32,000 bases of DNA from Delftia acidovorans NBRC 14950. GTDB lineage: Bacteria; Pseudomonadota; Gammaproteobacteria; Burkholderiales; Burkholderiaceae_C. Both the position numbers and the translations under genes were made by a program. This document shows, in pieces, positions 13,704 to 21,969 of the stretch; the stretch's first letter is position 1; the number at the start of each line of letters is the position of its first letter. The notes beneath the pieces were generated by a model. That model had not been told where the DNA came from. It was given only the letters and a program-made list of their open reading frames with translations, and ran no database searches. Where the stretch lies: assembly GCF_001598795.1 (NCBI RefSeq), contig NZ_BCZP01000026.1, positions 44,283 through 76,282 on the forward strand, given 5' to 3'.

Positions 13704-14267
13704 ATGATTTTTCGCAGCCCCATCAAGTTCTGCCGAGCCTGCGGCACGGCCGTGGTCTACCGCATTCCCGACGATGGCGACACGCGCGAACGCGCCGTGT
13801 GCCCGCACTGCCACACCATCCATTACGAGAATCCGCTGAACGTGGTCGGCACCATCCCCGTCACCGACGACGGCCGCGTGCTGCTGTGCAAGCGCAACAT
13901 CGAGCCGCGCCGGGGCCTGTGGACCCTGCCTGCCGGCTTCATGGAACTGGCCGAGACCACGGCGCGCGGCGCCCAGCGCGAGACCGATGAGGAAGCCGGT
14001 GCCGACATCGAGATGGGGCCGCTGTTTTCCATCGTTGACGTGCCCAAGGTCAGCCAAGTCCACCTGTTCTACCGCGCCCGCCTGCGCAGCGAGCAGTTCT
14101 ATCCAGGCCCGGAGACCATGGAGGCCCGCCTCTTTGCCGAGGCCGAGATTCCCTGGGAGGAACTGGCCTTTCGCACCGTGCGCGTGACGCTGGAGCGCTA
14201 CTTCGAGGACCGTGCGGCCGGCCTGCTTGACGCGCACCGCGTGCACTCCATCGACCTGAGCCTGTAG
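13704..14267 (+). CDS. NUDIX hydrolase with N-terminal zinc-ribbon
   Basis: CxxC...CxxC (CRACGT...CPHCHT), then the Nudix box GFMELAETTARGAQRETDEEAGA (GX5EX7REUXEEXGU). Confidence 0.9.
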   Translation: MIFRSPIKFCRACGTAVVYRIPDDGDTRERAVCPHCHTIHYENPLNVVGTIPVTDDGRVLLCKRNIEPRRGLWTLPAGFMELAETTARGAQRETDEEAGADIEMGPLFSIVDVPKVSQVHLFYRARLRSEQFYPGPETMEARLFAEAEIPWEELAFRTVRVTLERYFEDRAAGLLDAHRVHSIDLSL

Positions 14268-14502
14268 GCGCACCACCGTGCTGCACGGCAGTGCCGGACG
14301 CGCCCCGGTGACGCCAGGCCATGCCCCGGCGTGGCGCCGATGGGGCTGCGGGTGGGGCTGTGGATGGGGGGCCGTCATCCCTGTGTCACCTTGCAGACAC
14401 ATTTAGTCACAAACTGGCCTTCTTCTTGCTCGTTGCATCAGGCTTTTCCCTGATCGGGGAAAGCGGGTTTCACCCAGCCTGAACCTGACTGCGGAGCGCT
14501 CC

Positions 14503-17421
14503 ATGGCCACATCCCTGCCAACCGACCTGATTCTTCCCCACCTGCGGGAACTCAACCGCAACGCCGCCGACCTGCGCGAAATACGGCTCATGTGGCGGCT
14601 CATCGAAGCCTCGGCCCGCATGCAGGCATCGCAGCAGGGGCAGGCCCTGGTGTCCATGCTCACCGACACGCGCCAGGGACTGGAGCAGCTGGAGCAAGGC
14701 CTGCTGCAGTCGCAGCTGGCGCAATCCGCGCAGGAGGCCATGGCCCAGCTGGGCATGCAGTCCGCCCATGCCATCGACCTGCTGGTGCGAAGCCTGTACG
14801 AGCGCACGGCCGATGTCGGCTTTCTCGCCGCCGATACCGTGCTGTGCGAGGCCATGGCCCGGCTTGACGATGGCGATGGCGATGGCGATGGCGATGGCGA
14901 TGGCGATGGCGATGGCGATGATTGTGGCCTGCCCGACATGGCGGCCGGCGGTCTGCGCGCATGGCAGGCACCGCTGCAGGCGCACTTGCAGGCCCACCTC
15001 CAGAGCTACCGAGCCAAGTACACGGTGTATGACGACATCCTGCTGCTGGACACGCAGGGCCAGGTCTGCGCACGTGCCCAGGCGCAGGCAGGCCGCAAGC
15101 CGCCACCGCCCTGTGCCGAGGCCTGGTTCCAGCAGTCCCTGCAGCAGGCCGGCCATGTCAGCCATTTCGGCGCCAGTTGCGTGCTGCCGGGCGCTGACCG
15201 CCTGATCTACGCGCAGCGCTTGCTGCACCCACGCACCATGGCGGTGCTCGGCGTGCTGTGCCTGAGCTTCGACTTCGCCGCCGAGATGCAGGCCATCTTT
15301 GCCTCGGGCGGGCCGCGCGCCCAGGTGGGACTGCTGCTGGACGACGGCGGACTGGTCATCGCCAGCAGCGACGCCCACTGGATAGCCCCCGGCAGCCGCG
15401 TGCCCATGCACCATGGTGATGCCGTACAGCCGCTGATCCATGCAGGCCGCACCTACCTGGTGCGCACGGCGCGCGCCCTGCCCTACCAGGGCTATGCGGG
15501 GCCGCAGGGCTGGCAGACCCAGGTGATGGCACCGCTGGACCTGGCCTTCGCCACGCAGCAAAGACCGCAGGTCCTGCAGGCGCTGGAGCCGGCCATTGCC
15601 GAGGGGCTGATGGCCCAGGCGCGCGGCTTTTGCCCGCCGCTGCACGCCATGGCCCGCGCGGCCGACGACATACGCCGCGTGGTCTGGAATGGCCAGGTGC
15701 TGGCTGCCAGCCAGGCGCCGGAGTCCCCGGTGCAGGGCACGGCCCACCCGGACCCGCTGCAGGCCGTGCTGGAGCAGATGGGCGAGACCGGCGACCTGAC
15801 CCATGCCGTGTTCACACGCGCCATTCACGGCCTGCACGAGACCGCGCTGTCCACCCGGCTGCAGGAGCACAGCACGCTGAACCGGCTGCTGATGGACCTG
15901 CTGGAGCGCAATCTCTATGAACGTGCCAACGACTGCCGCTGGTGGGCCCTGACACCCGGCCTGCAAAAGGTGCTGGAGGACAACAGCGGCTGCCTTGCCC
16001 TGTCGGTACAGGCCCACGACAGCGCGCAGCGGCTGCTGGAGCAGCTCAATGCGCTGTACACCGTCTATGCACGCATTGCGCTGTACGACGCCCAGGGCCT
16101 GGTGCTGGCCTGCAGCCATGAGGACGAGGCCGGCCTGCCCCTGGCTCCCGGCACGCGCGTGCAGGCATCGGCCCTGCAGGCCACTGTGCTGCTGCGCGAT
16201 GCCCAGGCCTACCACGTGCAGGAGATGGACGATGGAGGCCTGCCCGTCCATGTCTACCATGCCGCGCTGCGCGCGCCATCGCCTGGGAGTGAACAGACGC
16301 ACGGACATGCACACGGCGGCGATCAGGGCCCCGTCATCGGCGGCATCGCCCTGCTGTTCCACACGCGGCGGGAGCTGCAGGCCATGCTGCAGGCCGCAGC
16401 GCCAGAGCAGGCGACAACGGCAGAGCACGCTGCAGCCACCGATCCCGAAGACAGCGGCCTGCCGCGCCTGCCGATGGAAGCGTTCTACGTGGCGCGTGAC
16501 GGGCGCATCGTCGCTGCCAGCCATGGCGGGCGCCCGCTGGGCAGCTGCATCGCAGGCGTGGCCGGCCTGGCATCGCTGGCCGATGGCGAGGTGCGCAGCA
16601 GCATCGAGGAGATCGAAGGCCACTACTGCATCGTCGGCATGGCCGCCGGGCGCGGCTACCGCGAGTTCCGTCTGGACCAGGGCGCGGCACGCGATGCAAA
16701 AGAAAGCGCAACGGACGACACACTGGCCGGCCTCGTCAGCCTGAGCCTGCAGCGGCTGGGCCCCGTGCATGCCGATGCGCGCAACCGCGCGCTGCGCCTG
16801 GCGTCGGCCACCCGGCTGGATGGCGCCCGGCCCGCTACGCACGGGCACGGGCACGGGCACGGGCACGGGCACGGGCACGGGCGCGCCGCGCATGGCAGCG
16901 GCGACGCGCCTGTGGAACTGGCCAGCTTCTACGTGGGCGCCAGCCTGCTGGCCCTGCGCGCGGGCGATGTCTGCGAGGCCCTGCCCGCCAGCGCCATCTC
17001 GCCCGTGGCGGCAGGAAGGCTGCCGTTTTGCGTGGGCGCGCTGGCACGGCGCAGCCAGGGCAGCGTCAGCGGCTATGTCTGGGTGTTCGACCTGGCCGCG
17101 CTGCTGCAGGGCCAGCCCGGCGTGGTCACCGAGCAGTCACAGGTCATCGTGGTCCAGCATGGCGGCCTGCGCGTGGGCCTGCTGGTCAGCGCGCTGCAGG
17201 GCGTGCACCGGCTGCCAGCCAGCGCGCTGGTGGATTCGCCCATGCTGAACGCGGCCGACACCGCGACGGCCCTGGTGCGCAAGCTGGTGCATGCCGATTC
17301 GGGCCTGCCGCTGATCCAGTGCCTGGACCCCGCCGCGCTGATGCGAAGGCTGCAGCCTTCGCGCGTTGCCGCCGCCAATGCCGATCGCAATGCGGTCAGC
17401 GTGGAAAGAGAGGCGGCGTAG
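14503..17421 (+). CDS. 972-aa soluble multidomain protein: two helix-plus-Cache/PAS-like sensor modules and a C-terminal CheW-like domain
   Basis: Two repeated modules: LYERTADVGFLA...YTVYDDILLLDTQGQVCA and LYERANDCRWWA...YTVYARIALYDAQGLVLA. C-terminal region from about nt 16945 to 17368: LASFYVGASLLALRAGDVCEALP...VWVFDLAALL...VIVVQHGGLRVGLLVSALQGVHRL, matching the CheW fold pattern. I saw no TM segment, HAMP or MCP signalling domain. High GC3 in this frame. Confidence 0.8.
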   Translation: MATSLPTDLILPHLRELNRNAADLREIRLMWRLIEASARMQASQQGQALVSMLTDTRQGLEQLEQGLLQSQLAQSAQEAMAQLGMQSAHAIDLLVRSLYERTADVGFLAADTVLCEAMARLDDGDGDGDGDGDGDGDGDDCGLPDMAAGGLRAWQAPLQAHLQAHLQSYRAKYTVYDDILLLDTQGQVCARAQAQAGRKPPPPCAEAWFQQSLQQAGHVSHFGASCVLPGADRLIYAQRLLHPRTMAVLGVLCLSFDFAAEMQAIFASGGPRAQVGLLLDDGGLVIASSDAHWIAPGSRVPMHHGDAVQPLIHAGRTYLVRTARALPYQGYAGPQGWQTQVMAPLDLAFATQQRPQVLQALEPAIAEGLMAQARGFCPPLHAMARAADDIRRVVWNGQVLAASQAPESPVQGTAHPDPLQAVLEQMGETGDLTHAVFTRAIHGLHETALSTRLQEHSTLNRLLMDLLERNLYERANDCRWWALTPGLQKVLEDNSGCLALSVQAHDSAQRLLEQLNALYTVYARIALYDAQGLVLACSHEDEAGLPLAPGTRVQASALQATVLLRDAQAYHVQEMDDGGLPVHVYHAALRAPSPGSEQTHGHAHGGDQGPVIGGIALLFHTRRELQAMLQAAAPEQATTAEHAAATDPEDSGLPRLPMEAFYVARDGRIVAASHGGRPLGSCIAGVAGLASLADGEVRSSIEEIEGHYCIVGMAAGRGYREFRLDQGAARDAKESATDDTLAGLVSLSLQRLGPVHADARNRALRLASATRLDGARPATHGHGHGHGHGHGHGRAAHGSGDAPVELASFYVGASLLALRAGDVCEALPASAISPVAAGRLPFCVGALARRSQGSVSGYVWVFDLAALLQGQPGVVTEQSQVIVVQHGGLRVGLLVSALQGVHRLPASALVDSPMLNAADTATALVRKLVHADSGLPLIQCLDPAALMRRLQPSRVAAANADRNAVSVEREAA
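14869..14920 (+). repeat. Perfect hexanucleotide microsatellite (GATGGC)x8 plus a partial unit, encoding (DG)8
   Basis: Counted directly: units start at 14869, 14875, 14881, 14887, 14893, 14899, 14905, 14911. In frame in the 972-aa CDS. Confidence 0.95.
16840..16881 (+). repeat. Perfect hexanucleotide microsatellite (CACGGG)x7, encoding (HG)7
   Basis: Counted directly. In frame, just N-terminal of the CheW-like domain. Confidence 0.95.

Positions 17422-18463: not shown

Positions 18464-18464
<1 letters not shown>
17457..18464 (-). CDS. Patatin-like phospholipase (RssA/YchK-like)
   Basis: Internal ATG (MALSPRKPVVGLALGSGSARGWAH...) of ORF 17457..19262. Oxyanion motif GSGSARG, nucleophile elbow GSSIG, and DGG in LLVDGGIVNPVP. 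Confidence 0.9.

Positions 18465-21969
<3,505 letters not shown>

Follow-up and report, generated by a model that had tools for sequence, protein, structure and literature searches.

In a 32,000-nucleotide stretch of the genome of Delftia acidovorans NBRC 14950 (contig NZ_BCZP01000026.1, positions 44,283 to 76,282; hereafter the window), a gene at positions 14503 to 17421 encodes a protein of 972 amino acids that is cytoplasmic and carries, in order, two tandem modules, each combining a helical hairpin with a dCache-like fold, then a linker and a C-terminal CheW-like domain. Depending on the lineage, this sensor module is attached to a CheW-like domain or to the tip of a methyl-accepting chemotaxis protein (MCP), and since it is found on both, the module rides on either of two array-docking elements. 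We propose that the Delftia protein is a cytoplasmic sensor that would feed flagellar-type chemotaxis arrays through its CheW-like domain and so bypass the MCPs, a reading on which our confidence is evenly poised. An earlier note on the window, made from the sequence alone, had pictured a sensor that plugs into arrays in this way; the soluble double-sensor and CheW-like architecture of an orphan gene on which that note was built has held up, whereas array docking stays, as it was there, a proposal.

Domain architecture of the Delftia protein

The open reading frame (ORF) runs through 972 open codons on the forward strand, its start ATG is preceded by GGAG, and the same methionine begins the Delftia homologues in a 30-sequence alignment. 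The cytoplasmic layout, with hairpin and dCache-like fold present twice ahead of the CheW-like domain, is drawn from a structure model calculated with AlphaFold2 (AF2) on the family alignment, from Foldseek comparisons and from profile searches. The model is a confident one, with a mean predicted local distance difference test score (pLDDT) of 77.5 and a predicted template modelling score (pTM) of 0.74. The features of the gene that carry the argument, with the evidence for each, are the following.

14503..17421, + strand: whole gene, encoding the 972-residue soluble protein (ORF and translation, homologues, AF2)
14503..15717, + strand: sensor module 1, residues 1-405 (AF2, Foldseek, weak Pfam matches of homologues)
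14794..14829, + strand: invariant helix motif LYERTADVGFLA, residues 98-109 (columns L98-A109, alignment A1)
15019..15072, + strand: strand motif YTVYDDILLLDTQGQVCA, residues 173-190, which opens PAS-like lobe 1 (alignment, AF2)
15718..16827, + strand: sensor module 2, residues 406-775 (hhalign, AF2)
15913..15948, + strand: helix motif LYERANDCRWWA, residues 471-482 (L471-A482 invariant, N476 nearly invariant)
16057..16110, + strand: strand motif YTVYARIALYDAQGLVLA, residues 519-536 (Y519-Y522, Y528, D529 and G532 invariant)
16828..16911, + strand: disordered linker, residues 776-803 (pLDDT below 50 at 778-799)
16912..17352, + strand: CheW-like domain, residues 804-950 (Pfam, PDB profile, Foldseek, alignment)

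In the AF2 model, both modules open with a short helix and continue with a longer one of about 65 residues (15-39 and 44-109 in module 1, 378-403 and 418-482 in module 2), helix 378-403 lying ahead of module 2 but belonging to its hairpin. The hairpin of module 1 is followed by PAS-like lobes at residues 176-267 and 275-344 and by helices at 345-403, and the long helix 418-482 of module 2 by lobes at 522-632 and 658-754 and a helix at 759-774. The dCache topology, a long N-terminal helix with two PAS-like lobes, is present twice in the model, and Foldseek searches of the modules against the PDB returned chemoreceptor and sensor-kinase ligand-binding domains of the dCache type (Tlp3, Mlp37, Mlp24, PctA-C, DctB, rpHK1S-Z16 and NagS) at E 1e-7 to 1e-5 and TMt 0.5-0.66. 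The repeat had been described as a helical segment followed by one Cache/PAS-like segment, and this description was right in its helical and Cache-like character but too small in its fold, as each module is a helical hairpin with a complete dCache-like double PAS fold. At the level of Pfam, the Delftia protein has no match to dCache_1 (PF02743, gathering threshold 45 bits) at E <= 1. Its homologues mostly score 22-42 bits over most of the profile, residues 95-310 of homologue P0042, for example, matching profile positions 18-228 of 240 below the threshold, and three homologues (P0226, P0278 and P0340) pass it with 47-53 bits.

The two modules are homologous and represent an internal duplication. 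Residues 1-405 and 406-800 align with each other in hhalign at a probability of 99% (E 3.9e-18, 262 columns), which together with the invariant columns of the motifs confirms the two repeats that had been read from the sequence. Conservation of the repeat motifs was judged in the 30-sequence alignment; in YTVYDDILLLDTQGQVCA, Y173, V175, Y176 and G186 are invariant, and the model places strands at 176-183 and 188-193. The invariant motifs specific to the family within the modules are LYER..D, YTVY, YQGYxGPxGW / GYREFK and IRRVVWNGQ.

The single significant Pfam domain in the Delftia protein is CheW-like, PF01584 matching residues 807-949 at E 2.5e-11 (43.8 bits, where the cut-off is 23.5), and the C-terminal CheW-like domain of the earlier note is thereby supported by a profile search. 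Compared with solved structures, the family sequence profile matches CheW alone (2qdl, 4jpb and 1k0s). The modelled C-terminal domain is beta-rich, with strands between residues 804 and 941, and has the two-subdomain SH3-like beta-barrel fold, and Foldseek gives TMt values of 0.72-0.82 to 2ch4_W, 2qdl and 9a72_B.

No match to HAMP, MCPsignal, HisKA/HATPase or REC was found in the protein by Pfam at E <= 1, and Pfam likewise returned neither a CheV-type receiver, nor the Hpt and HATPase_c of CheA, nor a CheR/methyltransferase domain, the sensor part being dCache-like; NCBIfam gave zero matches. No signal peptide was found in the protein. The top 19-residue Kyte-Doolittle window scores 1.62, contains both D and E and falls in a predicted beta strand of the model, and the protein accordingly has no transmembrane (TM) helix. 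The soluble 972-residue ORF, and the lack of a TM helix, HAMP, MCP signalling domain, kinase and receiver, agree with what had been described for this gene.

The family and its relatives with an MCP tip

Full-length homologues are 37-98% identical to the Delftia protein, those outside Delftia being about 850-925 amino acids long and 37-47% identical, and the nearest named record in the genome scan was Delftia acidovorans at 95%. An exhaustive HMMER search with residues 1-800 returned 529 clusters (at 50% identity) at E <= 1e-3, with 227 at E <= 1e-30. The family, which is large and cleanly delimited and has members in species amenable to laboratory work such as Comamonas testosteroni and Delftia acidovorans, is carried by at least 573 species-representative genomes, mainly of Burkholderiales, among them Comamonadaceae, Oxalobacteraceae (Noviherbaspirillum, Herminiimonas, Oxalicibacterium, Paucimonas), Methylophilaceae (Methylotenera, Methylophilus) and others. 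The CheW-like domain is present in 114 of the 149 best representatives, these 114 having a median length of 863 amino acids, and an architecture with a single module and CheW was also found (P0211, 497 amino acids).

When 400 Pseudomonadota genomes were searched with a family member that has no CheW domain, nine single-module proteins were obtained, and seven of these, soluble proteins of 348-441 amino acids in other Pseudomonadota, were extracted (L019-L025). Two examples are located as follows.

G586:C1:69923-73663: mini-MCP relative L025
G559:C1:38279-41986: mini-MCP relative L021

All seven carry a canonical MCP tip (LALNAxIEAARAGxxGxGFAVVAxEV), and Pfam MCPsignal matches each of the three that were scanned above the gathering score (E 4e-15 to 6e-20). 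About 64 residues past the tip comes NL[FY]ER[TS]xDVRWWATD, the form in which the LYERTADVGFLA-type helix motif recurs in these mini-MCPs, and after it YTVY, then a region resembling dCache, with GYExYxGLGW at the C-terminus. In hhalign, the profile of the mini-MCPs aligns over residues 354-728 with module 2 of the family at a probability of 99.8% (E 1.2e-27), and the probability for module 1 is 99.6% (E 1.2e-23). The alignment with module 2 crosses the tip region, where IRRVVWNGQVMTAGQ stands opposite KMLALNALIEAARAGEQG with low per-column confidence, and both Delftia modules have a helix-turn-helix about 57-65 residues before LYER, as the mini-MCPs do. The MCP tip motif itself is retained by none of the 149 family representatives, and no mini-MCP paralogue was found in the Delftia genome, the matches there being the tips of about 30 ordinary MCPs.

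The finding of the LYER-dCache module behind an MCP tip in soluble mini-receptors of about 360 amino acids is new here. The tip sits on a very short hairpin of roughly 45-50 residues per arm, and the proteins have the appearance of minimal cytoplasmic chemoreceptors; to our knowledge the smallest described MCP length class is that of 24 heptads, and the mini-MCP hairpin is far shorter. As for the origin of the family, it is likely that a soluble mini-MCP, in which a LYER-dCache module stood C-terminal to a tip hairpin, was duplicated in tandem, that the tips decayed and that a CheW-like domain was acquired and took over docking; the reverse order is a less likely course.

The Delftia gene also contains two in-frame microsatellites, both detected by Tandem Repeats Finder (TRF).

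14868..14920, + strand: hexanucleotide microsatellite encoding (DG)n in a loop of module 1 (period 6, 8.8 copies)
16839-16882, + strand: hexanucleotide microsatellite encoding (HG)n in the linker (period 6, 7.3 copies)

The in-frame unit of the (DG)n repeat is GATGGC (TRF consensus CGATGG, 100% matches, score 106), and its loop is predicted to be disordered, with pLDDT below 50 at residues 138-146, whereas the unit of the (HG)n repeat is CACGGG (TRF consensus GCACGG, 100% matches). In P0002, a homologue of 98% identity, the (DG)n repeat is shorter by five units (10 residues) and the (HG)n repeat by four (8 residues), so that the length of both varies by whole codon pairs between close strains.

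Several further observations on the distribution of the family were made. Two genomes each hold two paralogous copies (G178 at C1:2729315-2731261 and 2763538-2765493; G083 at C1:273958-275616 and 1654878-1656839), and in one genome of the Comamonadaceae (G006:C1:904733-906476) the gene is an apparent pseudogene spread over several frames with an internal TGA. In Nitrincola sp. (L011:8955-10109) the CheW-less double-Cache protein P0226 (633 amino acids) has as convergent neighbour an MCP that is apparently split into MCPsignal and HAMP pieces. A 5.8-kb contig labelled 'MAG: Citrobacter freundii' (QFQQ01000152.1, L030) contains a copy 97% identical to the Delftia gene and is probably mis-binned.

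Proposed docking into chemotaxis arrays and the alternatives

In the mechanism that we propose, the two tandem hairpin and dCache-like modules would bind an intracellular small molecule, and the flexible linker would tether them to the CheW-like domain, which in turn would insert the protein at the CheW position in the CheA-P5/CheW rings below the array. Ligand-dependent changes in the sensor could then alter CheA activity or the coupling of the array without an MCP, as in CheWS, a sensor fusion of Treponema denticola that is compared below. Array docking, ligand binding and an effect on CheA are what we infer for the Delftia protein, and for docking the support is indirect, coming from the precedent of CheWS and CheW-CZB, from the co-occurrence with CheA and from the relatives with an MCP tip.

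The co-occurrence was assessed in 301 sampled genomes of the GTDB family, 49 of which carry the gene. A strong match to the dimerisation domain of CheA, of the flagellar type, was obtained in 45 of the 49 carriers, and the four without one (G224, G236, G240 and G250) are assemblies of 370-870 contigs. More telling are the smallest carriers, of 2.5-2.7 Mb (G223 and G034), in which only four CheW-like domains occur, one each in CheW, in a protein similar to CheV, in a single CheA of about 770 amino acids and in the family protein. No ChpA-type kinase was found in these two genomes, and therefore any chemosensory partner there must be the flagellar-type system, the one chemosensory system that they have. 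Pil-Chp was also considered as the partner, and is unlikely, as the minimal carrier genomes are without a ChpA-type kinase. The genome of Delftia holds seven CheW-like domains (CheW and CheA together, a second CheW, CheV, a PilI/ChpA pair and the 972-residue protein) besides its MCPs, which number about 30, and its canonical CheW adjoins cheA.

The CheW-like domain was aligned with E. coli CheW and with five domains of the same genome, those of CheW, the second CheW, CheV, PilI and CheA-P5. V823, E825, G845 and R850 of the Delftia protein correspond to V36, E38, G57 and R62 of E. coli CheW, and the E38/R62 salt-bridge pair, which belongs to the receptor/kinase coupling site, is kept as E825/R850 in the Delftia-Comamonas clade. 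Among the 114 CheW-bearing representatives, G57 is kept in 108, G99 in 85, V36 in 77 and E38 in 76. The NLRG motif of CheW is replaced by ARR[SA] (ARRS in Delftia), which is followed by a five-residue insertion. The domain is clearly CheW-like, yet divergent.

A number of observations weigh against docking at the CheW position. The CheW-like domain scores 43.8 bits compared to 131.5 bits for the canonical CheW of the genome, and this divergence tempers the claim of canonical receptor binding; E38 is kept in 76 of the 114 CheW-bearing representatives, and the R62 equivalent is R or K in only 36, at a place where the alignment is uncertain beside the five-residue insertion. Among the 149 best representatives, about 17 look like complete two-module proteins of 659-685 amino acids that have neither CheW nor an MCP tip (P0278, P0298, P0340, P0350, P0368 and P0380, for example, with no other Pfam domain), so that the sensor part can act without a known docking element. 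The co-occurrence with CheA discriminates weakly, because CheA is found in 257 of the 301 genomes in any case and the relatives are not independent. No ORF with a CheW-like domain or an MCP tip lies within 3 kb of the gene in 73 related loci. There is no GCCGATAA-like -10 box of a sigma-28 promoter in 14268-14502, and a crude match to such a promoter in related loci (3 of 74, with 1 control hit) is not general. A scan for sigma-70 promoters and terminators gave no useful result.

The genes that flank the Delftia gene are those that had been described for it and lie as follows.

13704-14267, + strand: NUDIX gene, upstream flank
ends 17457, convergent: patatin ORF, downstream flank
18464-20575, - strand: ligA, downstream flank

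The neighbourhood differs by genus, with NUDIX and patatin in Delftia, groESL and H-NS in Comamonas and AraC, P450 and LysR in Malikia. A conserved che neighbourhood was considered and rejected, as contexts vary, that of a metagenome locus with a single module and CheW included, and none of the 73 loci has a che gene within 3 kb. In 20 of the 73 loci, the family gene is adjoined by a gene for a soluble PAS/GAF-GGDEF-EAL protein (for example L050:22-2973, L052:625-2874, L062:654-2999 and L072:510-2636), which in Giesbergeria, Simplicispira and Paucimonas has the same direction as the family gene and abuts or overlaps it, and in Methylophilaceae (Methylotenera and relatives) is divergent from it. 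Since this adjacency is found in perhaps four or five independent lineages, the recurrent neighbours suggest a link of the family to cyclic di-GMP (c-di-GMP) signalling. The Delftia locus has no GGDEF/EAL neighbour.

It is in this light that an array-independent role has to be weighed, in which the CheW-like domain would have been repurposed as a generic interaction or regulatory domain and the double dCache would control another target, such as the neighbouring PAS/GAF-GGDEF-EAL enzymes. We consider this role unlikely, although it carries appreciable weight. The adjacency itself, the R62 position that is not conserved across the family, the CheW-less double-sensor relatives and the absence of che genes beside the gene in any locus would all be accommodated by it, but no CheW-like domain is known outside a chemosensory context, and the domain is retained by most representatives (114 of the 149) with the equivalents of V36, G57 and G99 well conserved (77, 108 and 85 of the 114, respectively). 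Moreover, the sister architecture has a canonical MCP tip, an element without a known role outside arrays, and in Delftia the proposed GGDEF/EAL target is not next to the gene.

A scaffold or adaptor within the array, similar to ParP, appears less probable still. The CheW-like domain would again integrate the protein, whereas the hairpins, as vestiges of an MCP, and the Cache folds would mediate assembly, positioning or recruitment. In ParP, which serves as precedent, the CheW-like C-terminus follows an N-terminal part that is not sensory (PMC5706961), the most conserved residues of the modules lie on helices (the LYER motifs) and not in obvious Cache pockets, and the hairpins keep the geometry of the MCP tip, with the turn about 57-65 residues before LYER in modules and mini-MCPs alike. 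However, the dCache fold is overwhelmingly a small-molecule-binding one, the Foldseek matches of the modules are ligand-binding domains, and hundreds of species conserve the two PAS-like lobes of each module. It is highly improbable that the protein is a CheW of the ordinary coupling kind whose N-terminal extension is irrelevant, for although NCBI and JGI records name homologues in Comamonas, Acidovorax, Simplicispira, Giesbergeria and Malikia 'chemotaxis protein CheW', 800 of the 972 residues form a conserved non-CheW region, the genome has its own canonical CheW beside cheA, and in Comamonas testosteroni CNB-1 deletion of the canonical cheW abolishes chemotaxis (PMC6391922), an essential function that would argue against the family as a redundant coupling protein. 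At the level of the species, the family is present in genomes of C. testosteroni and C. thiooxydans.

Comparison with known systems and significance

Chemotaxis arrays are usually thought to take their input through MCPs alone. The closest precedent for the Delftia protein is CheWS of Treponema denticola (TDE1492), which consists of CheW and a CheR-like domain that binds S-adenosylmethionine (SAM); it modulates chemotaxis and is anchored in the array, where its sensor lies beneath the rings (Muok et al. 2023, mBio; PMC10653840). The same authors describe CheV, double and triple CheW (2x and 3xCheW) and CheW-CZB as other known CheW architectures, name predicted PAS-CheW fusions and arrive at another 30 Pfam architectures that had not been described, of which 12 contain input domains; they suggest that CheW fusions may be a widespread means of sensing (PMC10653840). 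PAS-CheW fusions are also among the rare architectures that Vass and colleagues left out of their study, and as 111 Pfam architectures with CheW-like domains, sensor fusions included, are in the literature, the premise of the earlier note that such domains normally occur alone or within CheA and CheV is outdated. Cache is not listed in the supplements of PMC10653840 that we consulted, and we found in the literature neither a paper on a Cache-CheW fusion nor an experimental study of the family. Sensor-CheW fusions are thus already known, and what is unusual here is the duplicated, cytoplasmic dCache sensor and its kinship with the mini-MCPs.

The Delftia protein resembles CheWS in being one soluble chain that combines a CheW domain with a small-molecule sensor domain, and we propose for it the same logic, by which an intracellular signal would enter the array at the CheW position and not via an MCP. 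The sensors differ, that of CheWS being the CheR-like SAM-binding domain and that of the Delftia protein a dCache-like module that includes a helical hairpin and is present twice, and the Delftia protein further has a divergent CheW-like domain, an orphan gene and a host among Betaproteobacteria with F7-type systems. Array anchoring was demonstrated for CheWS, whereas for the Delftia protein it is what we infer. The canonical CheW proteins of E. coli (2ho9/6s1k), T. maritima (1k0s/2ch4) and T. tengcongensis (2qdl) share the fold of the CheW-like domain at TMt 0.72-0.82, and equivalents of V36, E38, G57 and R62 are present in the Delftia protein, but it has 972 residues compared to about 160, ARR[SA] and the five-residue insertion stand in place of NLRG, and the R62 equivalent is basic in only about one third of the family representatives. 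With dCache_1 domains (Tlp3 4xmr, Mlp37 5avf, PctA 5ltx, DctB 3by9 and NagS 8w7p) the modules share the long helix and two PAS-like lobes, although they are cytoplasmic, have no flanking TM helices and form a tandem pair in one chain.

TlpD of H. pylori is a soluble chemoreceptor with an MCP part and a C-terminal CZB sensor. The single-module relatives (L019-L025) are laid out like TlpD, with the MCP tip first and the sensor at the C-terminus, whereas the Delftia protein has no recognisable MCP signalling domain and only hairpins of matching geometry, and would dock, if at all, through CheW. CZB offers a further parallel, as it is one sensor domain found on both MCP and CheW (CZB fusions: PMC10653840). 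In Vibrio, the larger protein ParP is built into arrays by the CheW-like domain at its C-terminus (PMC5706961), but unlike in the Delftia protein the N-terminus is not a sensor fold and binds ParC for polar positioning.

CheWS is one exception, in spirochetes, to input through MCPs alone. If our reading of the Delftia protein is true, the principle of input at CheW would extend to hundreds of environmental and opportunistic Betaproteobacteria, such as Delftia, Comamonas, Acidovorax, Methylotenera and Noviherbaspirillum, and the array would receive its input from dCache, a normally extracellular sensor fold. More tentatively, and with rather less confidence than we attach to array docking of the Delftia protein itself, one LYER-dCache family may use two interchangeable array connectors, a minimal MCP tip hairpin in the mini-receptors and a CheW-like domain where the module is duplicated into a single-chain pseudo-dimer, and input at the CheW position may be widespread in Betaproteobacteria (at least 573 species) and not a peculiarity of spirochetes. 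Given the GGDEF-EAL neighbours, this route might then link flagellar chemotaxis with a signal from inside the cell, c-di-GMP metabolism for instance. The presence of the same module on an MCP tip elsewhere would make the family a natural experiment on how signals enter chemotaxis arrays.

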